From NCBI GenBank assembly GCA_018334755.1, contig JAGXLI010000003.1, positions 1 to 63,342 on the forward strand: a DNA stretch of 63,342 nt, written 5' to 3'. Positions 4,106 through 62,867 of the stretch are shown here, one piece after another. Every line of letters starts with the position of its first letter. Within the stretch, counting starts at the first letter, position 1. The notes below the pieces were generated by a model. The model was not told the DNA's origin and ran no database searches. It saw only the letters and a program-made list of their open reading frames with translations. The DNA comes from Thermoplasmatota archaeon. Its GTDB lineage: Archaea > Thermoplasmatota > Thermoplasmata > Halarchaeoplasmatales > Halarchaeoplasmataceae. The position numbers were made by a program, and so were the translations under genes.

Positions 4106-4744
4106 GTGGCAGATGAAAAGACACTTGAAGGAGTTAAGAAAGCCCTAGAGAAGTCGCCCGGTAGAAATTTTGAAGAGAGCTTAGAATTAGCTATAAATCT
4201 AAGAGAAGTGGACCTTTCTCAACCTCAGAACAGAATTGACGAGGAGATAGTCTTACCCAGCGGCAGAGGAAAAGAGATAAAGGTGGGAGTCTTCGGAAGC
4301 GGAGAGTTGGCTCTGCAGGCTAGAAAAGTCGCAGATACGGTCATAGAACCCGATGAGATCGAGGATATATCGGAAGAAAAGAAAGATGCGAGGAACCTTG
4401 CAGAGGAACATCAATTCTTCTTAGCTGAACCACCTCTCATGTCGGCTATCGGTAGAGAACTCGGTTCCATCTTGGGACCGCAGGGTAAGATGCCGAACCC
4501 TATCACACCGGACGAGGACATCGAAGAAGTGGTCAAGTCTTTGAAAGGGACAGTTCACGTAAGATCCCAGGACAGAAGAACGTTCCACGCACCGGTGGGA
4601 ACGGAAAAGCTAGATGCTGAGGAGATAGCGGACAACATAGACACGGTGATAAGACGTATAGTTCAAAATCTGGATAGAAGAGAAAGGAACCTAGAGAGCG
4701 TGTATGTGAAAACGACCATGGGCCCTGCTGTGAGGATCATGTGA
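4106..4744 (+). CDS. rpl1: 50S ribosomal protein L1 (uL1)
   Basis: 212 aa, GTG start. Typical uL1 sequence (ELAINLREVDL ... GKMPNP ... VHVRS ... HAPVG). First gene of the conserved archaeal L1-L10-L12 cluster. Confidence 0.93.
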   Translation: MADEKTLEGVKKALEKSPGRNFEESLELAINLREVDLSQPQNRIDEEIVLPSGRGKEIKVGVFGSGELALQARKVADTVIEPDEIEDISEEKKDARNLAEEHQFFLAEPPLMSAIGRELGSILGPQGKMPNPITPDEDIEEVVKSLKGTVHVRSQDRRTFHAPVGTEKLDAEEIADNIDTVIRRIVQNLDRRERNLESVYVKTTMGPAVRIM

Positions 4745-5846: not shown

Positions 5847-6170
<324 letters not shown>

Positions 6171-7998: not shown

Positions 7999-8613
7999 CT
8001 ATGGCTCCCATAGAGGTTCTCCTAAAGGCAGTATCTCTTTCTCCGCCATATTGTTGATCAGCACACCGGCGGCTCCGTAGAAGGAGAATATCGAGACAAA
8101 GAGAAGCGAAACACCCACAGGAACCGCTCCTGTACCGACTAAGATATGAGAGACGAGAGCCAAAATGGCGACGTCGATAGATATAAGGACTCCCAGAAGG
8201 GTTTTATTCGTCATCAAAGAGGCCCCTGTCAATATGATACTGAAGATCAAAAATCCTAGCAGCCCATGCGCATAATGCGTGAGATCAAAGTCAATGGACG
8301 TGAAGATGGTGATGAACAACGTGAGTGAAACTGAATACCATAGCATAGAATATGTTGTGAATGCAGTAGCTCCAAATATGTTATCTCTCTTGAAATCCAT
8401 TATACCCGCAACCAACTGCGCCGTAGCTCCTAGAAACAGGGTCCATGGGATCATCAGGGATTCCATTTTGCTCGACGCAAAACCTAGATCTGTAAAAGCT
8501 AGTACCAAAGCAGCTATGGCAAGACCGATCAGACCCAAACAAGCGGGATCAGCTATCTTGGGCGGTGGTTTCTTGATTATCGTACGAGGCTCAAGCTGAT
8601 CGTTTTCGTCCAT
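7999..8613 (-). CDS. satP: GPR1/FUN34/YaaH (SatP) family acetate/succinate channel
   Basis: Motifs ADPACLGLIGLAIAALVL (NPAPLGL-like) and FGATAFTTYSMLWYS, with six hydrophobic helices. I start the gene at the internal ATG 8613 (MDENDQLEP...). The 59 upstream codons of the ORF-track model are Cys/Trp-rich and look non-coding. Confidence 0.75.
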   Translation of the reverse strand: MDENDQLEPRTIIKKPPPKIADPACLGLIGLAIAALVLAFTDLGFASSKMESLMIPWTLFLGATAQLVAGIMDFKRDNIFGATAFTTYSMLWYSVSLTLFITIFTSIDFDLTHYAHGLLGFLIFSIILTGASLMTNKTLLGVLISIDVAILALVSHILVGTGAVPVGVSLLFVSIFSFYGAAGVLINNMAEKEILPLGEPLWEP

Positions 8614-10712: not shown

Positions 10713-10894
10713 CTTTTCGTTCTTCTAAATTTTATCCAACTAATCCAATTTGTTTTTTATGTAAAACCGCTTTCAAATTATGAAAGATAGATTTAAACTC
10801 TTCGATTTGATGAATTTTCTTGAATAGAAGTGGATAGAACATTTTTTGAAATTAGCCGATCACTTGTTCATATATAAGATTTATACTATTTGTT

Positions 10895-12373
10895 CTACTC
10901 TTCATCTATCCCCTGGGTGATCTCTTTCAATTTTTCTCCGTCCTCATCATAGATATTGACCTTCAAGGGGGTCTCGCCCATCGCAGAATGAGTCGCACAG
11001 GCCAAGCAGGGATCGTAAGCTCTGAACGCTCTCTCCACTCTGTTGAGCATGCCCTCTTCGATATTCCCGCCGTCTATGTATTTTTTAGCGGCGTCTCTCA
11101 CGCTCATCGAGATGACCGAAGCGTTGTGATTGGTCGCCACTATGAGGTTGGCGTTCTCTATCAGACCGTCTTCGTCAAGATCGTAGTCGTGTATCAAAGT
11201 CCCACGCGCAGCTTCGACTATCCCGATGCCGCTGCCTGGCTCGCCCGGTTCGTTCCTTATGTTGTCGCTTTCCAGATCTTCGTCCTGTGCCAGATTTTCC
11301 AGCAGTTCGGCCGCCTGCAGAACTTCAATCAACCTGGCCCAGTGATAGGCAAGAGTGGAATGAACGGGGTAACCCAACGTATCGAACATCTCTTCATATT
11401 CCTCCTGGGCTAATTCCGTTTTCATCCCCTCGGCGGTATTGATCCTGCCGAGAGTTCCGACACGATACACACCTGAATCTTCACCATCTTCGAATCCTTC
11501 CCAACCGATCTCCTTGAGGTAAGGGAACTTCATATAACTCCAGGATTCTGTATGTTCTCTTATAACATCGGTATAATCGGCACCGGTAAACGAAGCGAAA
11601 TTGTCTCCATCGGGATCGACCACGTTTACTTCGCCTCCGGTATGGCTCAATTCGCCGTCTTCGGTCAGCCCCATGCTGTAAGTCTCCAACCGGTCCTCCT
11701 TTATGACGTCTTCATACTTCGCTAGAACTTCGTCTTTGAACAGGTCCAGAGTGAATTGAGCGAAATCAACCATATCACCGCTCAATTCTTTCAATTCTTC
11801 TCTCTCCTCTGAACTCAGTGACTTCGTGACACCTCCCGGTAGACCGAAAGCCGGATGTACCGATTTTCCAGCAAGCATCCGGACTATCTTTTGGCCTTTA
11901 CCTCTCTGTCGGATGACTTTCTTTCCTATCTCTTCTCCGACTTCACCGATCACCCCTAAGATGTTCCGTTCCTCCCTAGGTGCGTCGACGCCGACCAAAA
12001 AGTCGGGGCTGGCTAAATAGTAAAAGTGTAATATATGATCGGCGAAGATGTATGCGTTGTAGAAAAGTTCTCTTAACTTCTTAGCGGGCTCCGGCGGTTC
12101 TACATCATAAGCGTCGTCGAGAGCTTTAGAAGCCGCAAGGTGATGAGCTTCGGGGCAGACTCCACATATCCTGTTGGTTATGTTCGGCATATCTTCTGCC
12201 CTTCTACCTTCGCAGAACTTCTCGAATCCTTTGTATTCCGGGACCTGTAGGTAGGCGTTCTTAACCTCTTCATCGTCATCCAAAAATATCTCTATCTTGC
12301 CGTGACCCTCTAAACGAGTTATGGGGTCTATCGATATCTTATTCTCGTTTTTATCAACTTTTTCTTCACTCAT
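10895..12373 (-). CDS. mvhA: [NiFe] hydrogenase large subunit, F420-non-reducing type (MvhA)
   Basis: RLEGHGKIEI, N-terminal RICGVCPEAH and C-terminal DPCLACATHS Ni-Fe ligands followed by a cleavable extension. ATG 12373 overlaps the mvhG stop by 8 nt (ATGAGTGA). Confidence 0.9.
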   Translation of the reverse strand: MSEEKVDKNENKISIDPITRLEGHGKIEIFLDDDEEVKNAYLQVPEYKGFEKFCEGRRAEDMPNITNRICGVCPEAHHLAASKALDDAYDVEPPEPAKKLRELFYNAYIFADHILHFYYLASPDFLVGVDAPREERNILGVIGEVGEEIGKKVIRQRGKGQKIVRMLAGKSVHPAFGLPGGVTKSLSSEEREELKELSGDMVDFAQFTLDLFKDEVLAKYEDVIKEDRLETYSMGLTEDGELSHTGGEVNVVDPDGDNFASFTGADYTDVIREHTESWSYMKFPYLKEIGWEGFEDGEDSGVYRVGTLGRINTAEGMKTELAQEEYEEMFDTLGYPVHSTLAYHWARLIEVLQAAELLENLAQDEDLESDNIRNEPGEPGSGIGIVEAARGTLIHDYDLDEDGLIENANLIVATNHNASVISMSVRDAAKKYIDGGNIEEGMLNRVERAFRAYDPCLACATHSAMGETPLKVNIYDEDGEKLKEITQGIDEE

Positions 12374-13780: not shown

Positions 13781-15751
13781 TTATCCCTCCTCCTCGGTCA
13801 GCCCCGCATCTATCATCGCTTCTAACATCTCATCTTTGAAGCCTTTATGCTCGATAGCCCCGGTCGGACATAGAGATGCGCAGGAGCCGCATCCCATACA
13901 TAGGACATCGGTTATCTCCGCGACCTCGTCTTCTTCATTGTATTCGATAGCGTCGTAGGGGCACACCGAAATACACATCTTACACCCGCTGCAGATATCA
14001 TCATCGATACTAGCTATGGTGGCTTCTGATTGTAATTTATCTTTAGATAAAATGGTAGAAGCTTTTGCGGCGGCTCCAGAAGCCTGAGATACCGAGTCGG
14101 GGATATCTTTCGGGCCTTGACAGCACCCTGCGATGAATATGCCGTTCGTGAAAGTATCCATAGGCCGCAACTTGGGATGTGCCTCCTGCAGAAAGCCGTC
14201 ACTAGACCGGGTGATGCGTAACTGTCTAGACAGTTCCTCAGTCCCCTCGCTCGGAAGCAGTGCAGGGACCAAAACGACAAGATCGGATTCCACCTGAAGG
14301 AGCTTATCCATGGTCGTATCGAAGACGTTAAGTTCTACCTTTTCTTCTTGAACGTTCACTTCCGAGGGCCTACCGCGTACGAAGTTGACATCTAAATCTC
14401 TCGTTCTCCTGTAGAACTCTTCATAGCCCTTTCCGAAGGAGCGGATATCGGTATAGCAGATGTTTATGTCCACGTCTTCGTCCAGATGGTCTCTCAATAG
14501 ATGTACATGCTTCAAGGCGCCCATACACCCTATCCTGCAGCAGTAAGATTGTAATTCTTCGTCTCTAGAACCGACGCAGAGGATGAAGGTCACGCTCTCC
14601 ACGTCTTCTCCATCCGATAATCTGTGTATCTCACCATCGGTCGGTCCCGAAGCATCTATTATCCTCTCCAATTCTAAATTCGTGATTATATCCTTAGACT
14701 TTCCATAACCGTACTCGTAAATTTTCTCAGGATCCATGAGATCGTAGCCGGTTGCTACGATTATAGAGCCCACGTTCAATTCTACGATCTCATCCTCGTC
14801 ATCAAGATCTATAGCGTCGAGCTCGCAGACTTCTCTACAGGATGTGCAGGTACCATCATATTCTAGAGAAATACAAACTTCGGAGTCGATGGTATAAGCG
14901 GCGGGAACCGCTTGGGGAAACGGAGTATATATCGCCCCTCTATTGTCCAATCCTTCGTTGAACTCGTCTTCGACGTTCCCACTCCTCCTACATGCTTCTG
15001 CACAATCTCCACATGCGGTACACTTGTCCCAGTCGACATAAGTGGCCTTCTTCTTCACTTTCACCTCAAAGTCCCCAACGCTGCCATCCACCTCTTCGAC
15101 CTCGGAATAAGTCAATAATTCGATATTCGGATTACGAGCTACGTCGGTCATCTTCGGAGTCAAGATACAGGAGGAACAGTCTAGAGTAGGAAAAGTTTTG
15201 TCCAACTGAGCCATCTTTCCGCCTATACTGGGTTCTCGTTCGACCAAGTAGACTTTTTTACCCTGGTCGGCCAGGTCCAGCGCGGACTGGATACCGGCGA
15301 TCCCTCCACCGATCACCAATGCATCTGAATTGACATCTACCTCGGTCTTCTCAAGGTCTTCAGATAAACGAGACTTCTCTACGCTCATCTCTACCAAGTG
15401 TTTTGCCTTCTCCGTGGCTTTTTCCATATCGTCGCTGTGGACCCAAGAGCATTGTTCCCTAATATTGGCCATCTGGAAGCGATAGGGATTTAAACCAGCG
15501 TCCTCAACGACCGCTTGGAATGTCTCTTCGTGCATCCTGGGAGAACAGGCCGCAACGACCACCGAGTCCAGATCCTGCTCTTCGACACTATCTTTGATCA
15601 GTTCTTGACCGGGGTCGGAACACATATATTTGTAATTAGTGGCAAAGGTCACTCCATTCAGATCTGAAGCGTATTCCGTCAGTTCATCCACATCCACAGT
15701 TCCGGCGATGTTGCTTCCACAGTGACATATAAAGACTCCTATCCCTGACAT
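13781..15751 (-). CDS. hdrA: Heterodisulfide reductase subunit A (HdrA)
   Basis: 656 aa. IGVFICHCGSNIAG, FAD fold ALVIGGGIAGIQSALDLA, inserted and C-terminal 2x[4Fe-4S] ferredoxin motifs (CTACGDCAEAC; CSGCKMCISVCP; CMGCGSCASLCP). Confidence 0.93.
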   Translation of the reverse strand: MSGIGVFICHCGSNIAGTVDVDELTEYASDLNGVTFATNYKYMCSDPGQELIKDSVEEQDLDSVVVAACSPRMHEETFQAVVEDAGLNPYRFQMANIREQCSWVHSDDMEKATEKAKHLVEMSVEKSRLSEDLEKTEVDVNSDALVIGGGIAGIQSALDLADQGKKVYLVEREPSIGGKMAQLDKTFPTLDCSSCILTPKMTDVARNPNIELLTYSEVEEVDGSVGDFEVKVKKKATYVDWDKCTACGDCAEACRRSGNVEDEFNEGLDNRGAIYTPFPQAVPAAYTIDSEVCISLEYDGTCTSCREVCELDAIDLDDEDEIVELNVGSIIVATGYDLMDPEKIYEYGYGKSKDIITNLELERIIDASGPTDGEIHRLSDGEDVESVTFILCVGSRDEELQSYCCRIGCMGALKHVHLLRDHLDEDVDINICYTDIRSFGKGYEEFYRRTRDLDVNFVRGRPSEVNVQEEKVELNVFDTTMDKLLQVESDLVVLVPALLPSEGTEELSRQLRITRSSDGFLQEAHPKLRPMDTFTNGIFIAGCCQGPKDIPDSVSQASGAAAKASTILSKDKLQSEATIASIDDDICSGCKMCISVCPYDAIEYNEEDEVAEITDVLCMGCGSCASLCPTGAIEHKGFKDEMLEAMIDAGLTEEEG

Positions 15752-29780: not shown

Positions 29781-30959
29781 CTAAGACCACCTCCTCAAGA
29801 TATGAACAATCGCACTCGCGCCGGTTCCTCCTATGTTATGGATTAGCCCGTATTCTGCATTCTCCACCTGTCTATCTCCTGCCTCTTCTCTCAGTTGTAG
29901 CGTTGCTTCGACCGCCTGATTTATACCGGTAGCGCCGACCGGACGGCCTTTCGCTTTCAGTCCGCCGGAAGTGTTTATCGAGATATCTGAATTCAACTTT
30001 GTCTTCCCTTTCTCGGTCGCCGGGCCGCCTTCTCCTTTGTCGAAGAAGCCCAGATCTTCGATGGCCATTATTTCAGTTATGGTATAATTATCGTGGACCT
30101 CGGCGAAGTCGATATCTTTTGGTCCTATATCTTCTCTCTTGTAAGCCTTTTCAGACGCTCTTTTGGTCGCTTCCATCGTACCTATATCATCTCTCTCGTG
30201 CACGGCCAAGTTGTCGCCACCCTGACCTATACTAGCTATCTCTACAGGTTCGGTCTGGAAGCTTTCAGCTTTCTCCACTGGACACAATGCCACGGCGGCG
30301 GCACCGTCAGAGATCGGAGCGCAGTCGAACATACCTAAGGGATCAGAAACCATGGGTGCGCTCTTGACAAAATCCTTCGAGGTCTCCCTTGGATACTGGG
30401 CGTTAGGGTTCTTAGCCGCGTTCTCATGATTTTTTACGGCAACCTCAGCCAGTTGGTCCTTCGTTGTGCCGTACTCGTCCATATGGTATCTAGCCATCAT
30501 CGCATAGAGGGAATCGAAAGTTGCTCCGAAGACCGTTTCCCATTCTTGATCGGCTGTAGAGGAAAGGATATCTTTCGCCTCCTGTTCTCCGACATCGGTC
30601 ATCTTCTCCGCTCCTCCGACGACGACGAAGTCATCCATGCCTGAAGCTACCGATTTGTATCCCTCGGCCAGAGCCATACCTCCGGAAGCACCTCCGGATT
30701 CTATCCTCGTTGAAGGTACTTCGCTCAATCCGGCGTAATCCGCTATCAGCGGGGCGATATGTTCCTGATTTATGAGCTTGCCGGCTGACATATTGCCTAT
30801 ATACATCTTCTCGACTTCGTCACCTCTCATCCCAGCATCTTTCAATGCCTTCAGACCGGCTTCGATGCCCAGTTCTCTCAGCGATTTATCCCAGAGTTCT
30901 CCTATTTGGGTCTCTCCTATACCTATTATAGCTACGTCTCTCAAATCATCCACCTCCAT
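29781..30959 (-). CDS. Archaeal-type (SCP2-like) thiolase homologue lacking the catalytic Cys and His
   Basis: [70 protein letters not shown]. The nucleophile motif reads ESGGASGG and the C-terminal motif reads [11 protein letters not shown] 30959 (MEVDD...) overlaps the HMGCS stop. Confidence 0.85.
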
Positions 30960-32007
30960 GGATCTTATCTCTATATTTAGCATACACTGCATATGAGATG
31001 TATTCTTCTCCAGTCGTAACGTCTTCTATCTTTGGAACGTCCTGCTCCTCTATCTTCTCTATGTTTTCGGTCACTTTGATATCGAAACTGTCGGCTCCAG
31101 CTCCTGAGCCGTATGAAGTCACCAGTATATTATCTCCAGGTTCTGCCTGATCTAATGTTGCCGCTAATCCCAGGGGAACAGCGCCTGAATAAGTGTTGCC
31201 TATTTTTGGAACTAGAAGGCCGGGCTCTATCTGTTCTTTAGAGAAACCCATCTTTTTTGCCGCCTTCATGGGAAACTTACCGTTAGGTTGATGGAAGACC
31301 GCATAGTCGTAATCTTCGGGCTCTTTTCCAGTTTCCTCTAGCAACTTTTCAGTACAAGTGGTAACATGTTTAAAGTAAGCCGGTTTACCAGTGAACCTTC
31401 CACCGTGCTGCGGATATTTTTCTCCCTCTCTTCTCCAGAAGTCAGGGGTATCTGTCGTAAAAGAGCAGGTACGTTCTATCGTTGCTAGAAGGTCTTCGGA
31501 CCCGATCACATAGGCGGCGCCTCCGGCTCCCGCCGAATATTCTAAAGCATCAGACGGAGCTCCCTGTGAAGTGTCCGCTCCGATGGCCATACCGTTCTTG
31601 ATCATACCTGAACTCACCATCCCCATACAGGTCTGGAATGCGGCCGTACCTGCCTTACAGGCGAATTCATAATCGGCTGCCGTCATATGTGGAGAAGCCG
31701 CTAAGGAAGCCGCTACGATGGTGGCAGTCGGCTTCACCGCGTAGGGATGCGACTCCGAACCGACATATATCGCATCTAGATCGTTTCCCTTTATACCCGC
31801 TCTCTGGATCGCCCACTTCGCGGCTTGAGTAGAGATCGTTACAACGTCCTCATCTGGAGCCGGGACCGACTTTTGCTCGATCCTCAGACCCTTTCCCATG
31901 GCTTCGCCGTCCTTTCCCCAGACATCACCGATCTCTTTGGGGGTGATCCTGTACTTAGGGACATAACCCGCATATCCTTTTATTCCAACTTCTTTTTCCG
32001 TTTTCAT
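30946..32007 (-). CDS. Hydroxymethylglutaryl-CoA synthase (archaeal)
   Basis: 353 aa. [36 protein letters not shown] (catalytic Cys), FHQPNGKF. Confidence 0.9.
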
Positions 32008-32013
32008 ATGATA

Positions 32014-32685
32014 TCACGACCTTTTTTCCAATATCTTTATCAATCTTTGAACCTCAAAGTCAGTCTTGAGTAGAGGAACGCCTTCCTTTTCCGCTAATTT
32101 CGTCGATAATTTATCGACTTTCTTCGGCTGTATGTAGCATACGGCCGCAGGGGTCAACGGAGTGGAACGGATAGCTACAAGAGGCGATCGACCGTGTTCT
32201 ACTCCTTTAAAAAATAAGATCCTCTCCGTGCTCCATCCGTAAAGGCTTAGGTAATCGAAAGATCTCATGGATAAGATGGCTTTGATACTATCTATAACCG
32301 TATAACCGTAGATCTCATGGTCTAATCTTCCCTCATATATCGGTTCTCCTTCGACCTCATCGATTATCTCTTTTAGGGGCACCCCTTCACCAAATTCTCC
32401 TATGCTCAAGATACCCTCACGGCCTGGCCTAGAGAACCGATCTATCACCTCCCCGCCTCTCTCTTCATCTATCGCGATCAAGGACTCAACTATATTTCTG
32501 ACCAGTGTAGCACCGGGCTTCCGCCTCCCCTTCTCATAATCGCTGATAACGGAGGGTGACACTTCCATCCTCTCCGCAAGCCTGGTCTGAGAGACTTCGA
32601 ACATCTCTCTCCATTTTTTTATTACCTCGCCGGGGTTCTCAGAGATGGTTATCTCCCCAGCGATCTTTTCTTCCAATTCAGACAT
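32014..32685 (-). CDS. HTH (Cro/C1, XRE-type) transcription regulator with an archaeal C-terminal domain
   Basis: 223 aa. FEVSQTRLAERMEVSPSVISDYEKGRRKP helix-turn-helix. Its stop lies 6 nt upstream of the HMGCS ATG on the same strand. Confidence 0.75.
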   Translation of the reverse strand: MSELEEKIAGEITISENPGEVIKKWREMFEVSQTRLAERMEVSPSVISDYEKGRRKPGATLVRNIVESLIAIDEERGGEVIDRFSRPGREGILSIGEFGEGVPLKEIIDEVEGEPIYEGRLDHEIYGYTVIDSIKAILSMRSFDYLSLYGWSTERILFFKGVEHGRSPLVAIRSTPLTPAAVCYIQPKKVDKLSTKLAEKEGVPLLKTDFEVQRLIKILEKRS

Positions 32686-32738
32686 CTTTATGGAGTGTAG
32701 AAAAGGGAACTATATAAAATTGTCGAATATCTATATCG

Positions 32739-33251
32739 TCAATAGTCTAAAAAGATCCGTCGTTTTTTCAACAGAGATTCAAATCTCTTCTCACAGCTCC
32801 TGCAGTACCACTTAGATTTCTTATCCGTGTCCAGCAGGGAGTTAGAAAAATGCATCACACATCTGCGGTTGGAACAATGTTCCAGACCGACAACATGACC
32901 GATCTCGTGTACCGCCTCTTTGATCATCCTCTCTTTCATCTTTTCGCCATCGCCCAACCGGTGTGTAGAGATTATGCATCCCTTCCCGTCTTTTTCCGCG
33001 AGCCCGAAGATGAAATTTAGATGACCAGTAAAAAGATCATGGTCGGTGAGGCCTATAACGATATCATCCAGTTTTTCTCCTCTTTTGGAACAGACCTCTA
33101 AATACCCTCTTCCTTTATATTGACCTCTGTTCGGATCATACATATCTTCCAATTCGACATGTTCTTCTAGCACCTGATTCTTAAATGGGATCTCTTCTGA
33201 GAGTACGTTGGGATCCTCGACCGATGTTTCAAAAGGTAACATGTATAGCAT
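32739..33251 (-). CDS. amzA: Archaemetzincin (zinc metallopeptidase)
   Basis: 170 aa. HEIGHVVGLEHCSNRRCVMHFS ... CRSC. Confidence 0.85.
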   Translation of the reverse strand: MLYMLPFETSVEDPNVLSEEIPFKNQVLEEHVELEDMYDPNRGQYKGRGYLEVCSKRGEKLDDIVIGLTDHDLFTGHLNFIFGLAEKDGKGCIISTHRLGDGEKMKERMIKEAVHEIGHVVGLEHCSNRRCVMHFSNSLLDTDKKSKWYCRSCEKRFESLLKKRRIFLDY

Positions 33252-33479
33252 ATTTTCAGTTCATAAAGATTACAGAGAATCCTCGATAAATACCTTTCTC
33301 ATCACTACTTAAACGCTTCAGGTTTTTGCACGACCGGCACTCGAAAATTTCTGCAGCTCGTCAGTTTCGACCTATTTTATCCACTTGAAGCACATCGATA
33401 TGAGTGTCCCGGCCTTAGCTCTTTTGGTGTAATTGATAATGAAAATATCAGATGATAATCGCGGCAGACCGACCCTTGC

Positions 33480-33488
33480 TTTTAAATA
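33480..33488 (+). promoter_or_regulatory. TATA box of the tbp promoter
   Basis: TTTTAAATA centred about 41 nt upstream of ATG 33525. Confidence 0.4.
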
Positions 33489-33524
33489 GGGGTATTTAAT
33501 TAGGAAGGGGCAGAGTGATTGAAT

Positions 33525-34073
33525 ATGGAAGGTTTAACGATTGAAAATGTGGTAGCATCATCGTCGATAGGGAAAGAGCTGGATCTGTGGGATGTGCATG
33601 AAGCGCTGGAAGGATCAGAATATGATCCTGATAAGTTTCCGGGATTGATCTACAAGATGGATCAACCGAATACTTCTCTCCTACTATTCTCCAGCGGCAA
33701 GATGGTCTGTACCGGTGGAGTCACCTTAGAAGAGCCTCAAAAGAGTGTAGATAAGATAAAGAACCTCCTGAACGAGGGCGGTATAGAGACGGCCGATGAG
33801 GTGAAAGCCACTATTCAGAATATAGTAGCTTCTTATGAATTAGATACTGATCTCAATCTGAATTCTGTAGCCATTACACTCGGACTCGAAAGGGTCGAAT
33901 ACGAACCGGAACAGTTCCCTGGTTTGGTTTACAGGTTACAGGACTCGCCAGTCGTGCTTCTCTTGTTCGGTTCAGGAAGGATGGTCTGCACCGGCGGAAA
34001 AAATGAAGAACAGTTGGAAGAAGGCGTTGAACACATCAAGGACGAATTGAAGAAAGCCGGACTGCTAGATTAA
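33525..34073 (+). CDS. tbp: TATA-box binding protein
   Basis: Two TBP repeats (IENVVASSSIGKELDL ... MVCTGG; IQNIVASYELDTDLNL ... MVCTGG). ATG 33525 is preferred over TTG 33519. Confidence 0.93.
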   Translation: MEGLTIENVVASSSIGKELDLWDVHEALEGSEYDPDKFPGLIYKMDQPNTSLLLFSSGKMVCTGGVTLEEPQKSVDKIKNLLNEGGIETADEVKATIQNIVASYELDTDLNLNSVAITLGLERVEYEPEQFPGLVYRLQDSPVVLLLFGSGRMVCTGGKNEEQLEEGVEHIKDELKKAGLLD

Positions 34074-34120
34074 AAAGAAAAAAAACAAAAAAGAAAAAAA
34101 CTTTTCCCTAACACTCTTCT

Positions 34121-35269
34121 TTACACCAGTTCTTCGACCATGTCGGTCTTTTCCCAGGTGAATTCCTCTTTCTCTCTTCCGAAATGTCCATAGGCTGCAG
34201 TTTTTTCATAGATCGGTCTTTTGAGTTCAAGATGGTCTATCATCTCTGCCGGTCTTAGAGGGAATTTTTCTTTAGTCAGTTTCTCTATCTTTCTCTCCGG
34301 GATATTGTTGGTTCCGTAGGTGTTGACGAGTATACTGGTTGGTTCAGGGACGCCTATGGCGTAGCTGAGCTGGACCTCGCATTTTTCAGCTAGTCCTGCT
34401 GCGATCAGATTTTTAGCTATATATCTAGCCATGTATGCACCCGATCGGTCCACCTTAGAGGGATCTTTACCTGAGAAGCATCCACCACCGTGGCTTCCGT
34501 GACCTCCGTAAGTGTCCACTATGATCTTCCTACCGGTCAAACCGGTATCTGCCTGGGGCCCTCCTAATACGAACCTTCCGGTCTCATTTATGTTGAAGGT
34601 GGTGTCATCATCTACCAGATCTCCACATATCGGATCGATCACCTCTCTCTTGATATCTTCCCTCAACTTTTCGTCTTCCACGTCTTGATCGTGTTGAGCC
34701 GCTATCACCACGTCGTCTATCCTTTTTGCGGTGTCCCCTTCGTATTCTATCGTAACCTGGGACTTTCCATCTGGCCGTAGGTACTTAAGCTTACCTTCTT
34801 TACGAACGTCCGTCAACTTTTTTGATAACTTGTGAGCCGTTATGATAGGCATAGGCATCTTCTCTTCCGTTTCCGTAGTGGCGTAACCGAACATGATCCC
34901 CTGGTCGCCGGCACCTTGTACTTCTCTATCTACGCCCTGGGCGATGTCGGGGCTCTGTGAATGTATAGCGGTCATCACCCCGCAGGAGTCGGCCTCAAAA
35001 CCGTACTCGTGCTCGGTATATCCGATATTATCTATTGTGTCCCTGACGACGTCGTTGACATCTACATATCCGTCACAGGTGACTTCACCTCCGACGAATG
35101 CCAACCCATTGGTCAGGATGGTTTCGACGGCCACCCTCGAGCTCGGATCCTCTCGTATCAATTCATCTAAAATCGAATCGCTGATCTTATCCGCCATCTT
35201 GTCTGGATGCCCTTCCGTAACTGATTCTGAGGTCAGATAATATTTCCGATCTCTATCTCTTCTTCTCAT
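34121..35269 (-). CDS. metK: S-adenosylmethionine synthetase, bacterial/eukaryotic MetK type
   Basis: 382 aa. [49 protein letters not shown]. Confidence 0.93.
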
Positions 35270-35368
35270 GTCGATCTAACTCCTTTTCCACGCATTATAA
35301 CGTATCCCCTATATTTATTTTGCTTTAACCTGAGTGTGTCAATAATTTAGTGATATAATAGATTTAAA

Positions 35369-35527
35369 GTGGAAGTCGGAACTTTTTAAACTAAAGTTCC
35401 AACATCCACAACTCACTGAGGAATTCACAAGAATTCCTCATGTCGTAGGAATTTAGAAAAATTCCTACTAACTTGGAATTTCCTATTGGAAATTCCGAGA
35501 GTCGATGGAATTTGCTCGCAAATTCCA
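35369..35527. repeat. Array of five tandem hairpins/palindromes sharing a GGAAYTT half-site
   Basis: H0 35369-35409 is imperfect (core GGAACTTT/AAAGTTCC). H1 35417-35440 TGAGGAATTC-ACAA-GAATTCCTCA. H2 35445-35468 GTAGGAATTT-AGAA-AAATTCCTAC. H3 35475-35496 GGAATTTCC-TATT-GGAAATTCC. H4 35506-35527 TGGAATTTG-CTCG-CAAATTCCA. H1-H4 have perfect 9-10 bp stems, 4-nt loops and centres 28-31 nt apart. Confidence 0.85.
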
Positions 35528-35779
35528 GTAGACGTCAATGACTCTATAAAAGTTCAAAAAGTTACGTCTTTGACTATAATAAGGAAAAGATTGTTTGCTA
35601 GACTTGCTACCCAAAAATCATGAACGCCCCAAAATGCTTTGAAGTGAAAGAAGGAGGCAAGTCCTGCAAAAGTTGACAGACTCTCTACAACAAAATCTTT
35701 TTATTCCCATATTACTGTTATGTAACAGGGTATACTATTATGAGTAATAAGATACTAACCCAGATATAGAGGTGAAGAT

Positions 35780-36874
35780 ATGGGGTTTATCGCCAGGATC
35801 AAGAGAGCATGGAAACTGATGAAAACGAGCTGGGGAGTCGTTATGTCGGAGAAAAAACTCATGCTCTACCCGGTAGTGACTCTTGTCGTATCCCTCATAG
35901 TTTTAGCATCGTTTATAGTGCCCCTCTTCTTTTGGATGCCAGTAGAGAACATTTATCTGCTTCTAGCATATCTCTTCTTACTTTATCTAGTGTTATCCTT
36001 CGTGGGGATCTTATTCAACGCTTCCATCGTAGGTTATGCGGCGGAGAAGTTCAAAGGCAGACAACCAGATTTCGGTGACGGGCTGGACCTCGCTTTGAGC
36101 AGATGGCCAAAACTCCTCGGCTGGTCCATACTCTCGGCGATAGTTGGCATGCTTATCAGAATCCTTAAAAGGGCTCTACGGAAGAAATTTGGATTCCTTG
36201 GAAGTCTTATAGGCGGGATCCTAGGGGTGGGGTGGACCTACGCCACTTTCTTCGTACTCCCAGTGCTCCTGATGGAGGAAGAGGGTGTCTTTTCCTCGAT
36301 CAAGAAGAGCGCGTTCTTGTTCAAAGATACTTGGGGTGAAACCGTGGCTGGAAGGATCGGTTTTGGGCTGATATTTACTGGATTAGGATTACTCGGGGTC
36401 CTGGCCTTTATCGGAGCCCTGATGACAGGAGCACCTTTTCTGGTCGCTTTTGTATTGCTGGTGATATACCTTCTGGTGATATTTGCACTCCACTCGGCCA
36501 TGAAGAGCGTCTTCGTGACGGCTCTTTACCAGTTCGCCACTGAAGGGACGCTTCCCGGTCCTTACAGTAGAGACCTGTTCCCTGATGCACAATCTTCCGC
36601 CGTCGGAGGAGGCGCTCAAACTCAAAAATCTGAAAGCGCCGCTCCGAGTCAACCATCGAATCAGAGCGGAGTCCTAGAAGATATGGAAGGTGTTGATGTG
36701 ATGCAGCCTGGAAACAGAGGGACATCAAAACAACGAGGTTCCCGAACTCAGACTCAAAAGACGTCTCCGTCGTCCGAAAAAGATTCCAGATATTGTCCTG
36801 ACTGCGGTGAAGAACTTAGGTATTTCGAAGAGTCTGGAAGATGGTACTGTGACAACTGCTACCAGTATAAGTGA
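35780..36874 (+). CDS. Membrane protein with a low-complexity linker and C-terminal zinc ribbon, function unknown
   Basis: 364 aa. About 6 hydrophobic helices, an S/Q/G-rich linker, then YCPDCGEELRYFEESGRWYCDNC. Confidence 0.6.
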   Translation: MGFIARIKRAWKLMKTSWGVVMSEKKLMLYPVVTLVVSLIVLASFIVPLFFWMPVENIYLLLAYLFLLYLVLSFVGILFNASIVGYAAEKFKGRQPDFGDGLDLALSRWPKLLGWSILSAIVGMLIRILKRALRKKFGFLGSLIGGILGVGWTYATFFVLPVLLMEEEGVFSSIKKSAFLFKDTWGETVAGRIGFGLIFTGLGLLGVLAFIGALMTGAPFLVAFVLLVIYLLVIFALHSAMKSVFVTALYQFATEGTLPGPYSRDLFPDAQSSAVGGGAQTQKSESAAPSQPSNQSGVLEDMEGVDVMQPGNRGTSKQRGSRTQTQKTSPSSEKDSRYCPDCGEELRYFEESGRWYCDNCYQYK

Positions 36875-37024
36875 GATCCTGCTCAGCATCTTCAGTCTTT
36901 CTTCCATATCGATCACCGCTCTCTCCGGGAGTTCTATGAAGTACGGCGATCTGCCTTTTCTTCTACTTTCCGAAGGAACACAATATATGAAAACAGTTAT
37001 AATCTATCGGGGAGATATAGATAT

Positions 37025-38695: not shown

Positions 38696-39316
38696 ATGGA
38701 ACCCATAAAAAGAACTATAGAGGATTACGATCAGATAGCCGAAGAGTACTGTAAAAAGACGGAAGAAGAGGGCGATAGAGAGTTCCACGAGAGGATGTTG
38801 GATAGGACTTTGAATTTTCTTCCTTCCGAACCGAGAGTGATAGATCTCGGCTGTGGAGATGGAAGAGACACAGAGTACATGAGAAAGAAGGGAGTTGATG
38901 TGGTCGGTATCGACCTCTCCGGTAGTATGATAGATCTAGCAAGAAAGAAATATCCAGAGTCTGCCTTCATCCAGGCTGACATGAGAGATACTGTATTTCC
39001 GGACGACTCTTTCCACGGGGCCTGGGCGAGCGCTTCTCTGATAAATATTCCGAAGTCCGAATTTTCGCGTGTTGAGAAGGAAGTCTACAGGATAGTCGAA
39101 CCTGAAGGTATATTCGCTTTCAGTTTCAAGGAAGGAGATCGTGAAGGGTTCGAGGAGAGCGTCGTGGAAGGCCACGAGAGGTACTACTCTTATTACACCC
39201 TAGATGAGATAGAAGATGAATTGAATCTCTTCGATATGGTCAAAAGTGAAAGATGCCCGAAAAAGATTTTCGGATCTGATTTTATATACTGCTGGGCGAG
39301 AGGTAAGAAAAGATGA
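38696..39316 (+). CDS. Class I SAM-dependent methyltransferase
   Basis: 206 aa. VIDLGCGDGRD motif I, Methyltransf_11-like. Its ATG directly follows the radical SAM stop. Confidence 0.85.
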   Translation: MEPIKRTIEDYDQIAEEYCKKTEEEGDREFHERMLDRTLNFLPSEPRVIDLGCGDGRDTEYMRKKGVDVVGIDLSGSMIDLARKKYPESAFIQADMRDTVFPDDSFHGAWASASLINIPKSEFSRVEKEVYRIVEPEGIFAFSFKEGDREGFEESVVEGHERYYSYYTLDEIEDELNLFDMVKSERCPKKIFGSDFIYCWARGKKR

Positions 39317-40566
39317 AGATAGACATACCCTACGGCGACGGCGAAGTAACGATAGATATAGAAAAAGAACGTCTCAACAAGATACTGGCTCCCAACGAAG
39401 TTGAAGTAAAGGACGAAAAGGAGAACATAAAAAACGCTCTGTCCGACCCGATCGAGATGCAAAGATACTCAGACATTTCAGACTTCATCAAAGATGGAAC
39501 TTTGATCATCGTAAACGATGCGACCCGGGCCACCCCGACCTCTAAGGTATTAGAAGTGATGCGGGAAGAGATAGAGAAACACGACGTCAGATTCATAGTC
39601 GCGAGAGGATCCCACGATGATCCAAATGAGGAAGAATACAGGGAGATATTCGGAAATTTTTATGAAACACATCGTGAACAGATCTATTCTCACGATGCGG
39701 AGGAAGATCCTATGGTTAAAAACGGCGAGACTGAAAGAGAAACCCCTGTCAAGTTCAACAGTCTTCTCTCAGAAGCGAAAAATGTCTTGAACATCAATTC
39801 AGTCGAACCTCATTATTTCGCGGGTTACACCGGCGGTAGAAAATCCTTCCTGCCCGGCATCGCTTCCTATGAGACCATAGAGAACAATCATTCTCATGCA
39901 CTAGAGGAAGGAGCCGACGCTCTCAGTCTCGAAGGAAATCCGATCCACGAGGACATGATCGAGGCCGTAGAGATGATAGATAAGGAGATCTTTTCACTCA
40001 ACCTGACCCTCGATAAAGATAACAGGGTGTATCACGCTTCTGCAGGAGACTGGAAGAGATCTTTTTACAGAGAAGCCGAGAAAGCAAAGGAAGTCTTTGC
40101 GGTCGGTCTTGAAAAGAAGTCAGACGTTGTGGTGAGTGCCGCTCATCCCATGGACGTGAACCTTTACCAGAGCGCCAAGGCGATAGAGAACGGGAAGCTG
40201 GCGTTGAAAGAAAACGGCACATTGATACTGGCGGCGAAATGTCCCCAGGGGATCGGGCCTAAGAATTTTTACGAATTACTATCCTCTATAGATTCTCCAG
40301 AAAAAACGGTCGAGAAGGTCAAAGAGGGATACAGGTTGGGTTACCATAAAGCCGGACGTATCGCCGACCTGATCTCCTGCTGGGACGGGATAGAGAAAAC
40401 ACAGCTTTGGGCGGTTACCGATCTAGATGAAGAGACTTTGAATAGTGTGTTTATCACTCCCAAGCAGAAGTTACAAAGCGCCGTCGAGGATGCTCTGGAA
40501 AAGACGGGTGGAGATTTCACCGTTCTGTTGAATGGATGTATGGTCGTTCCTGAGCTAGAAGACTAG
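39313..40566 (+). CDS. LarA-like (DUF2088) nickel-pincer-cofactor-dependent 2-hydroxyacid racemase/epimerase family protein
   Basis: 417 aa. IIVNDATRATP, ARGSHDD, EPHYFAGYTGGRKSFLPGIAS, ENNHSH. LarA His/Lys positions look conserved. ATGA overlap with the methyltransferase stop. Confidence 0.8.
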   Translation: MKIDIPYGDGEVTIDIEKERLNKILAPNEVEVKDEKENIKNALSDPIEMQRYSDISDFIKDGTLIIVNDATRATPTSKVLEVMREEIEKHDVRFIVARGSHDDPNEEEYREIFGNFYETHREQIYSHDAEEDPMVKNGETERETPVKFNSLLSEAKNVLNINSVEPHYFAGYTGGRKSFLPGIASYETIENNHSHALEEGADALSLEGNPIHEDMIEAVEMIDKEIFSLNLTLDKDNRVYHASAGDWKRSFYREAEKAKEVFAVGLEKKSDVVVSAAHPMDVNLYQSAKAIENGKLALKENGTLILAAKCPQGIGPKNFYELLSSIDSPEKTVEKVKEGYRLGYHKAGRIADLISCWDGIEKTQLWAVTDLDEETLNSVFITPKQKLQSAVEDALEKTGGDFTVLLNGCMVVPELED

Positions 40567-62766: not shown

Positions 62767-62867
62767 GGGCCCATAGATCAGTTGGCAGATCGTCACCTTC
62801 GCATCCTATAGAGACTTTCTGTAGGCGAGACAGGTGAAGGCCGCGGGTTCAAATCCCGCTGGGTCCA
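62767..62867 (+). tRNA. tRNA-Ala (anticodon CGC) with a canonical 37/38 intron of about 28 nt
   Basis: Acceptor GGGCCCA/TGGGTCC with G3:U70 and A73. D arm GATC-AGTTGGCA-GATC. Anticodon stem TCACC/GGTGA. Loop TTCGCA|intron 62804-62831|A. T arm GCGGG-TTCAAAT-CCCGC. The intron GCG (62826-62828) can pair with the anticodon, as expected for a bulge-helix-bulge site. Confidence 0.88.

Follow-up and report, generated by a model that had tools for sequence, protein, structure and literature searches.

INTRODUCTION

The closest described counterparts of the DNA analyzed here are REP (repetitive extragenic palindromic) sequences and the bacterial interspersed mosaic elements (BIMEs), which, like the enzymes that spread them, have been characterized in bacteria only. 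REP families are maintained by REP-associated tyrosine transposases (RAYTs), which have been reported from bacteria and not from archaea, where only IS200-type Y1 proteins occur (PMC6006769). One description of REP sequences gives the tag at their foot as GTAG or CGTC (PMC3733652). Template switching has been described as a process that creates and perfects hairpins and inverts their loops (PMC8794818, PMC8604942, PMC7202029). A general survey tool has reported palindromes in archaeal genomes without detail on tandem arrays (PMC12306157), and our literature search, which covered tandem hairpins in archaea and palindromes in Thermoplasmata, turned up no specific account of such arrays in archaea. 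Here, we describe a row of five tandem hairpins, hp0 and H1 to H4, at positions 35369 to 35527 of a 63,342-nucleotide stretch from a Thermoplasmatota archaeon (GenBank assembly GCA_018334755.1, contig JAGXLI010000003.1, forward strand), which we refer to as the window. The array lies between metK and a divergently oriented gene for a DUF6159 membrane protein.

An initial annotation of this DNA had proposed either a set of operators controlling metK and/or its neighbor or a multi-stem-loop RNA. We consider the array to be, with a probability of roughly one half, a cluster of DNA palindromes resembling REP sequences and BIMEs; it would have originated or been brought in with a lineage-specific insertion, be kept perfect by a process acting on DNA, and have at most secondary effects on its neighbors. 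The best explanation of the locus is that the array is non-coding and lineage specific and is not a control device made for metK.

RESULTS

Five tandem hairpins share a foot and differ in their cores

The array comprises five units of 22 to 41 nt that occupy 159 bp of the 510-bp intergenic region 35270 to 35779. The units are as follows.

35369 to 35409: hp0, an imperfect 41-nt palindrome, GTGGAAGTCGGAACTTT-TTAAACT-AAAGTTCCAACATCCAC, with 17-nt arms that are 88% complementary and the core GGAACTTT/AAAGTTCC
35417 to 35440: H1, a perfect palindrome, TGAGGAATTC-ACAA-GAATTCCTCA
35445 to 35468: H2, a perfect palindrome, GTAGGAATTT-AGAA-AAATTCCTAC, with the first bases GTAG
35475 to 35496: H3, a perfect core, GGAATTTCC-TATT-GGAAATTCC
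35506 to 35527: H4, a perfect palindrome, TGGAATTTGC-TC-GCAAATTCCA

These coordinates come from the sequence and a repeat finder, which together bear out the four perfect inverted repeats of 9 to 10 bp and the one imperfect hairpin of the initial annotation. H3 can be extended by 3 bp to 35472 to 35499 when one T.G pair on the plus strand is included, and hp0 has the GGAA/TTCC foot, whereas its loop measures 7 nt and its outer stem contains two mismatches. Successive centers from hp0 to H4 are 39.5, 28, 29, and 31 nt apart. No open reading frame spans the array, as had been stated, though two short ones (43 and 45 amino acids; 35483 to 35623) overlap H3 and H4.

A chance origin of the five hairpins is excluded. 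The pattern GGAAYTT-N0-10-AARTTCC occurs four times in the window against 0.02 expected, always within the array. Four of the six perfect inverted repeats in the window (stem of at least 9 bp, loop of 2 to 11 nt) fall within a single 111-bp stretch, that of H1 to H4; mononucleotide shuffles gave 0 to 3 such repeats per whole window. Each hairpin folds better than its own shuffles on either strand (z of -3.9 to -6.6), and the 261-nt region as a whole reaches z of -9.5 on the plus strand and -8.6 on the minus strand. Folding energies of the region on the two strands are -90.2 and -85.9 kcal/mol, and those of the single hairpins are nearly equal between strands as well. The bare heptamer GGAAYTT is not enriched (26 observed, 27 expected); only its palindromic arrangement is. 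The claim that every arm carries this heptamer holds for the shorter core GGAAYT, present in all ten arms, and fails for the full heptamer, given that H1 reads GGAATTC.

The units keep perfect pairing despite differing in sequence, as had been noted before, and they differ by changes on both arms, which indicates that pairing, rather than a fixed protein half-site, is what is kept. All 39 core pairs of H1 to H4 are Watson-Crick pairs, with no G.T. The gap between GGAAYT and ARTTCC is 6, 6, 10, 8, and 11 nt across the units, and outside the cores only one to three further pairs form (TGA/TCA, GTA/TAC, CTT/GAG, and T/A). The tetramer GTCG stands 0 to 2 nt before hp0, H2, and H4. The H1|H2 junction and the H3|H4 junction, 59 nt apart, are 74% alike, suggesting that a pair of hairpins may have been duplicated.

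The sole independent assembly of this organism is a Logan contig (L001, from SRR14023937; window positions 30917 to 35397), which is 100% identical and ends inside hp0 at 35397. H1 to H4 are therefore known from one assembly only, and the position of the contig end hints at heterogeneous sequence or a branching assembly graph at this place.

The array forms the left edge of a lineage-specific insertion

The features that surround the array are listed here.

34121 to 35269, minus strand: metK, bacterial-type S-adenosylmethionine synthetase (PF00438, PF02772, PF02773)
35303 to 35316, minus strand: probable metK TATA box, TCCCCTATATTTAT on the plus strand, assigned from position and conservation
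35363 to 36985, plus strand: lineage-specific insertion of approximately 1.62 kb between metK and lplA, with boundaries approximate to about 20 nt
35530 to 35580: distal element, with a weak hairpin AGACGT (35530 to 35535)/ACGTCT (35564 to 35569)
35780 to 36874, plus strand: DUF6159 membrane protein with a C-terminal zinc ribbon (PF19656, E 8e-35)

In Pfam scans, the window contains the gene for TATA-binding protein (TBP) and typical archaeal housekeeping genes, and its closest relatives belong to uncultured Thermoplasmata or Thermoplasmatota, with the labels Natronoplasma or Saliniplasma attached to some. The gene order helix-turn-helix (HTH) gene, TBP, metK (minus strand), lplA (plus strand), radical SAM, and methyltransferase is common to the related contigs L002, L334/L335, L339, and L340/L341. 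In all of these, the spacer between metK and lplA measures 108 to 160 bp and contains neither palindromes nor a DUF6159 gene; in L336 to L338, metK is absent, TBP directly precedes lplA, and there is again no array. The array is thus missing at the orthologous position in the six related lineages compared. The comparison of the metK-upstream region in relatives that the initial annotation had proposed consequently yields no arm conservation or covariation at the orthologous site.

When 35363 to 36985 is removed from the window, 138 nt of spacer are left, which can be aligned over their full length with the spacers of the relatives at 51 to 66% identity; the metK TATA box and the lplA promoter box AAAAYAGTTATAAT both fall into place. 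Given that the shortened spacer aligns in this way, the DUF6159 gene together with the array and a tail of 110 nt represents a lineage-specific insertion of about 1.6 kb. Its order is hp0, H1 to H4, about 250 nt of upstream DNA, the DUF6159 gene, and the tail, such that hp0 is the first element of the insertion and the array its left edge. The metK TATA box lies between the array and metK and is kept in L002, L334, and L340, all of which lack the array. The array lies at least 50 nt upstream of this box; H1 to H4 are at least 100 nt from the box, 100 to 260 nt from the metK start codon, and at least 250 nt from that of the DUF6159 gene. Perfect hairpins of at least 9 bp are rare in the relatives, with one in approximately 130 kb (0.08 per 10 kb).

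Homologues of the DUF6159 gene in other genomes (84 to 55% identical) adjoin hydantoinase genes. No counterpart of H1 to H4 was found upstream of those on L082 to L085; a loose hp0-like palindrome in L082 was the only similarity. A search of the window for homologues of hydantoinase, serine hydroxymethyltransferase (SHMT), and aminotransferase found none, so that the DUF6159 gene may have been either moved or duplicated. DUF6159 homologues on haloarchaeal megaplasmids are distant (29 to 34% identity), and no DNA match to 35340 to 35600 was found in plasmid and phage collections. What had been presented as a metK control element is therefore better read as a dated genome event: an insertion of 1.6 kb with palindromes at its edge.

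hp0 recurs in a related genome

hp0 directly follows the TATA-like sequence TTTAAAG. A second copy exists in the nearest relative, L002 (8268 to 8310; 86% identical over 43 nt), upstream of TBP and after TATATAA. The DNA around the two copies is not alignable; with H1 to H4 removed, the comparison of the window with the TBP-upstream region of L002 is only suggestive beyond the 43 nt. A palindrome related to hp0 also lies upstream of the SHMT gene in L085 (108 to 156). On the right side of the array, a 29-nt arm at 35551 to 35579 within the distal element is 79% complementary to 35364 to 35392, the left side of hp0, and this pair brackets the array. Positions 35553 to 35580 resemble the right arm of the L085 palindrome, and their alignment to L002 is only suggestive. 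From these likenesses, the distal element may be the other end of a module containing hp0. hp0 itself could serve as an operator or a transcript start, or it could mark one end of a small mobile module.

L002 has further hairpins of its own. Upstream of TBP, at 8190 to 8310, three hairpins stand in a row, namely, the hp0 homologue, AAAAGACACG...CGTGTCTTTT, and CCCCTT...AAGGGG; the row begins directly after TATATATAA. At 10880 to 11098, a tRNA-Thr(TGT) gene on the minus strand is accompanied, 80 nt upstream, by a 34-nt copy of its 5' part (88% identical), and this site looks like the remnant of an integration site. A small GTCGGAA...TTCCAAC palindrome with the same foot as hp0 lies between the tRNA gene and the copy, which links palindromes with rearranged DNA. 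The tRNA gene and the copy are followed by two tandem hairpins, GCAGGAAT-TT-ATTCCTGC and GAAATTTGC-AA-GCAAATTCC, one of them H4-like.

Arrays of similar build occur in other Thermoplasmatota

Metagenome contigs were scanned with a pattern derived from the window array, which returned at least 120 matches. Most of the matches listed were unrelated, including eukaryote-like GGAATTCC repeats; three of those listed (L114, L182, and L196) were relevant. L182 contains at least eight units at 1430 to 1707, the first directly after a stop codon. L196, which belongs to a Thermoplasmatales archaeon by thermosome similarity, has five units at the end of hsp20 (1 to 150). L114, whose methylmalonyl-CoA mutase is 68% identical to that of the window, has four units at 4598 to 4717 in a hydrogenase operon, between the large-subunit gene and its protease gene. 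Contigs of close relatives yielded further units, namely, L332 (eight in 13 kb, at four intergenic sites) and L333 (two). The trait appears patchy, given that L342 (79% thermosome identity) has no GGAA-type units while L332 and L333 do. Overall, these arrays occupy varied positions: some are at gene 3' ends, others within operons or upstream of genes. A scan of viral contigs returned only unrelated matches to the window array pattern and none to the Thermoplasmatales unit pattern or the hp0 core. Arrays of this kind also bear on assembly and annotation, as contigs tend to break at them: L182, L196, and L327 end inside one, as L001 does inside hp0.

The Thermoplasmatales unit can be written as ATNTTA-(C)-GGAA-N5-7-loop-N'-TTCC-TAAN'AT and occurs in either orientation. 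Across 22 units, 94.6% of cells are paired, with 71 double-sided changes against 4 one-sided changes. This is complementarity of the Watson-Crick type only, as expected of DNA palindromes rather than RNA helices.

Individual stems are shared with the window. The 9-bp stem of H4, GGAATTTGC/GCAAATTCC, recurs in L182 at 1597 to 1618 and, with one mismatch, in L114 (4663 to 4683), L196 (approximately 136 to 156), and L002 (11070 to 11098). H3 is similar to GGAATTCC-TGTT-GGAATTCC of L196, where an H3-like unit is likewise followed by an H4-like unit. With filters off, a covariance model built from the 22 units (R1) has its best match in the entire 63 kb at H3 (18.2 bits, E 0.044).

Hairpins of other sequence were also seen in these genomes. 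L029, from a Thermoplasmata genome, has its own dispersed family, GGTAAT-N4-(3-nt loop)-N4-ATTACC (2038 to 2160 and 14269 to 14291), whose inner stems vary with compensating changes (TTTC/GAAA, TTAC/GTAA, and GAAC/GTTC). In L114, a second cluster of perfect palindromes with other sequences lies at 8272 to 8522, examples being GGCAATTTGCC-AAA-GGCAAATTGCC and GTTACGAATTT-TGCT-AAATTCGTAAC. The L114 palindrome TGTTTCCGAT-AT-ATCGGAAACA lies just upstream of a 202-amino-acid gene of unknown function and could, from its position, be the operator of that gene.

Units turn over between strains

Closely related contigs differ in their hairpins. Upstream of the thermosome gene of L196, a 57-nt insertion made of two hairpins (6110 to 6166) has AGTAT at both junctions; it is absent from L326 to L328 and L331, which encode an identical thermosome protein, and from L332 and L333. 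L329, from a strain of the same species as L196, has a DDE transposase gene (PF01609; 266 to 1351) directly upstream of the thermosome gene, replacing that region. Given that this transposase and the 57-nt element share the same spot, the thermosome-upstream site appears to be an insertion hotspot. The spacer between dnaJ and hsp20 holds one unit in L327 and two in L333, and the L182 and L196 arrays begin with an identical first unit and then differ in the number and sequence of units. At one further site, the loop is inverted with stem and flanks unchanged (gaa at L332 2068, ttc at L327 5885). Read from these comparisons, the differences are apparently the marks of elements that insert, duplicate, and are homogenized arm against arm.

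Other features of the window

The closest relatives of metK outside its own lineage are from bacteria and DPANN archaea (56 to 64% identity), which hints that a bacterial-type metK may have reached this archaeal host by an old cross-domain transfer. A gene of the lactate racemase family (LarA-like; 39313 to 40566) lies between the methyltransferase and M50 peptidase genes, which are adjacent in L339, L340, and L002; it looks like a second lineage-specific insertion. Rfam reported a tRNA of 101 nt at 62767 to 62867 (57.5 bits) that ARAGORN did not; it is probably an intron-containing archaeal tRNA.

DISCUSSION

We favor the interpretation that the array is a REP/BIME-like cluster of palindromes, and the pathway that we propose for it has three parts. 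Units would multiply locally through duplication or insertion. A process acting on DNA, either intramolecular template switching or hairpin-templated repair, would then keep both arms of each unit identical, with the outcome that stems stay perfect while each unit has an inner sequence of its own. The GGAA/TTCC foot and the length, both constant, suggest, in addition, that some protein may read the foot of the extruded hairpin. Effects on the neighboring genes would be secondary: the hairpins or cruciforms could separate the two divergent promoters or, alternatively, should that strand be transcribed, form stem-loops in a long leader of the DUF6159 gene.

Several observations weigh against this interpretation. 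The window has one cluster in 63 kb and its nearest relatives have almost none, in contrast to the high copy number of REP sequences. No transposase, RAYT, other hairpin enzyme, or integrase was found in the window; a motif scan of all window open reading frames of at least 90 amino acids gave no HUH-Y1 candidate, and Pfam scans of 26 neighboring proteins returned housekeeping genes only, with no transposase. Model R1 places H4 at 11.4 bits (E 4.6) and does not list H1, H2, or hp0, and neither the outer stem ATNTTA(C)...TAANAT nor the unpaired C is present in the window units. The resemblance to the Thermoplasmatales arrays is also partly built in, given that those contigs were found with a pattern taken from the window array. 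Finally, the conservation of hp0 in two genomes (86% over 43 nt), with a TATA-like box before both copies, would fit an operator or transcript start.

A broader possibility, which we put forward tentatively, is that arrays of tandem palindromes in some Thermoplasmatota form a class not described before, clearest in L182, L196/L327, L332, L333, and L114 and perhaps reduced in the window. Such a class would combine a fixed GGAA/TTCC foot and length with a unique self-complementary core in each unit and a fast gain and loss of units between strains. It would need a mechanism of its own, for example, highly active template switching or a hairpin enzyme that reads the foot and has no relation to bacterial RAYTs. 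Most units have runs of T4 to T7 on both strands and could for that reason also act as compact two-way transcription stops.

We regard it as unlikely that the array works as RNA, transcribed from the plus strand as a multi-stem-loop small RNA or as a long 5' leader of the DUF6159 gene. Transcription would start at the TTTAAAG before hp0 or at a promoter further upstream, with hairpins that would either be bound by a protein or act on stability or translation. The very strong fold of the plus strand speaks for this, as do the TATA-like box directly before hp0 in both the window and L002, the purine-rich loops of H1 and H2 on the plus strand, the T.G pair in the H3 extension, which works on that strand only, and the compensatory changes among units. 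The similar arrays in L182 and L114 also follow genes on the coding strand and hence would be transcribed. The minus strand, however, folds nearly as well. RNA-level selection normally tolerates G.U pairs, and the core stems here have none, with one-sided changes as scarce in the Thermoplasmatales family as described above. No Rfam family matches the array: at gathering thresholds, the whole window yielded two tRNAs only, and a permissive scan of 35200 to 35850 gave chance-level matches, none better than E 0.63. The array is also absent upstream of all DUF6159 homologues examined and from the orthologous metK spacer, and the T5 runs in hp0 (plus strand) and in H2 (minus strand) would tend to stop archaeal RNA polymerase.

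For metK itself, H1 to H4 lie upstream of the conserved TATA box, and the array is therefore not in the metK transcript. The proposal of a metK leader or noncoding RNA fares poorly on several counts, namely, this position, the lack of an Rfam match, the equal folding of both strands, the core stems without G.U, and the empty orthologous place in six lineages. The S-adenosylmethionine-responsive riboswitch leaders of bacterial metK genes resemble the array in being structured non-coding DNA beside a bacterial-type metK. In contrast to those leaders, the array stands upstream of the metK promoter, is a simple row of hairpins with no multi-helix junction, has no Rfam match, and is absent in relatives.

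Rather improbable, in our estimation, is that the transfer of the DUF6159 gene took place at the palindromes or left them as a by-product; such an event could have involved, for example, the hairpin end of a small non-autonomous mobile element or a palindrome-mediated rearrangement. hp0 does sit at the first base of the insertion, and the 29-nt inverted repeat (35364 to 35392 and 35551 to 35579) flanks the array in the manner of terminal repeats. The L002 palindrome between duplicated tRNA-Thr parts, with an H4-like hairpin beside it, and the AGTAT at both junctions of the 57-nt L196 element point the same way. Yet inspection of the ends of the 1.6-kb insertion by eye found no clear target-site duplication or matching inverted repeat, window scans showed no recombinase nearby, and a single event would not need four extra hairpins.

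We consider it quite improbable that the GGAAYT/ARTTCC arms, spaced by roughly three helical turns, serve as cooperative binding sites for a DNA-binding protein, dimeric or oligomeric, that regulates metK and/or the DUF6159 gene in the manner of Lrp-type or NrpR-type archaeal regulators. NrpR of Methanococcus maripaludis appears to bind GGAA-N6-TTCC, and archaeal operator arrays of the NrpR and Lrp/feast-famine regulatory protein type share with the array a GGAA/TTCC half-site and palindromes about three helical turns apart. The 28- to 31-bp spacing of the H1 to H4 centers and the GGAAYT common to all ten arms agree with such a view. hp0, which is conserved in L002, has the usual place of an archaeal repressor site just downstream of a TATA-like box. 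The half-site gap, however, varies from unit to unit in a way that is unsuited to one rigid dimer, and bases inside and outside the shared core differ per unit yet pair perfectly, which a protein site does not need. H1 to H4 lie upstream of the conserved metK TATA box and far from both start codons; a second site was found neither in the window nor across approximately 130 kb of relatives; and similar arrays in other genomes stand at gene 3' ends. There is no regulator gene specific to the locus, and the local HTH gene keeps its position in relatives without the array.

The operator array for metK that the initial annotation proposed as one of its two readings therefore finds little support, given the variable half-site spacing, the position of the array beyond the conserved TATA box, the lack of other sites, and an HTH gene that is kept without the array. 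That annotation had also named a scattered miniature repeat as the outcome that would speak against a dedicated regulatory array, and the similar arrays in unrelated gene contexts elsewhere are an outcome of that kind. Taken as a whole, the window array differs from archaeal operator arrays in its variable half-site spacing, its complementarity beyond any shared motif, the position of H1 to H4 outside both core promoters, and the absence of conservation and of a regulon.

A replication origin, that is, an AT-rich divergent spacer with repeated protein-binding boxes, is barely plausible: the spacer does have about 35 to 37% G+C against about 46% around it and a local minimum of cumulative GC skew near 35.5 kb, but skew across the window only tracks gene direction, with no global switch, the neighbors are metK and the DUF6159 gene with no adjacent orc1/cdc6, there are no boxes resembling origin recognition boxes, and the array is missing at the syntenic site of relatives. 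A CRISPR array was rejected, as there are no identical direct repeats and no cas genes, and the Rfam CRISPR-DR match (E 4.5) is noise. The array shares with CRISPR a regular period of about 30 nt and an alternation of conserved and variable segments, and the Thermoplasmatales arrays share a unit number that differs between related loci; unlike in CRISPR, the variable part of the array is itself palindromic.

In summary, our analysis points to a REP/BIME-like cluster at the edge of an insertion. With REP-type elements characterized in bacteria, the archaeal contigs described here, dense in perfect hairpins with a constant foot and a hypervariable core that are ordered in arrays and vary among near-identical strains, offer an archaeal system for asking how palindromes are made and kept perfect. 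They also open a second question, that of roles in transcription termination, mRNA stability, or chromosome structure.

Among the systems compared, the Thermoplasmatales arrays differ from the window array in having a further outer stem, ATNTTA(C)...TAANAT, in which a single C or G is left unpaired; stems that are mostly GGAAAA.../...TTTTCC; a period of 31 to 37 nt against 28 to 31 nt; and a density of 5.6 perfect hairpins per 10 kb, where the window has a single cluster. They share with H1 to H4 the GGAA/TTCC foot, Watson-Crick stems of 8 to 11 bp, and loops of 2 to 5 nt, and with the window the phylum, a tandem period of about 30 nt, and recurring stems such as GGAATTTGC/GCAAATTCC. Judged by sequence likeness, there is probably a moderate link between the window array and this family, and its membership in the family is weakly supported. 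We have filed the array as the same kind rather than as a proven member, given that the foot and stems are shared but the model score is weak and the outer stem is absent.

REP families are built on one consensus, from which the array apparently differs in that nearly every unit combines the constant GGAA/TTCC foot with a perfectly self-complementary core of its own. Such families are also maintained by RAYT transposases (PMC6006769), none of which was seen in the window, and have many dispersed copies, compared with one cluster in 63 kb here and, across the approximately 130 kb of nearest relatives, a density of 0.08 perfect hairpins per 10 kb. In other respects the correspondence is close. 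The array shares with REP sequences and BIMEs short extragenic palindromes of 20 to 40 nt that stand singly or in tandem clusters between genes, and H2 begins with GTAG, as many REPs do. The similar arrays share placement at 3' ends, in operons, and between divergent genes, as well as a copy number and presence that vary among strains. Function in REP sequences and BIMEs is secondary and context dependent, as we propose it may be for the array.

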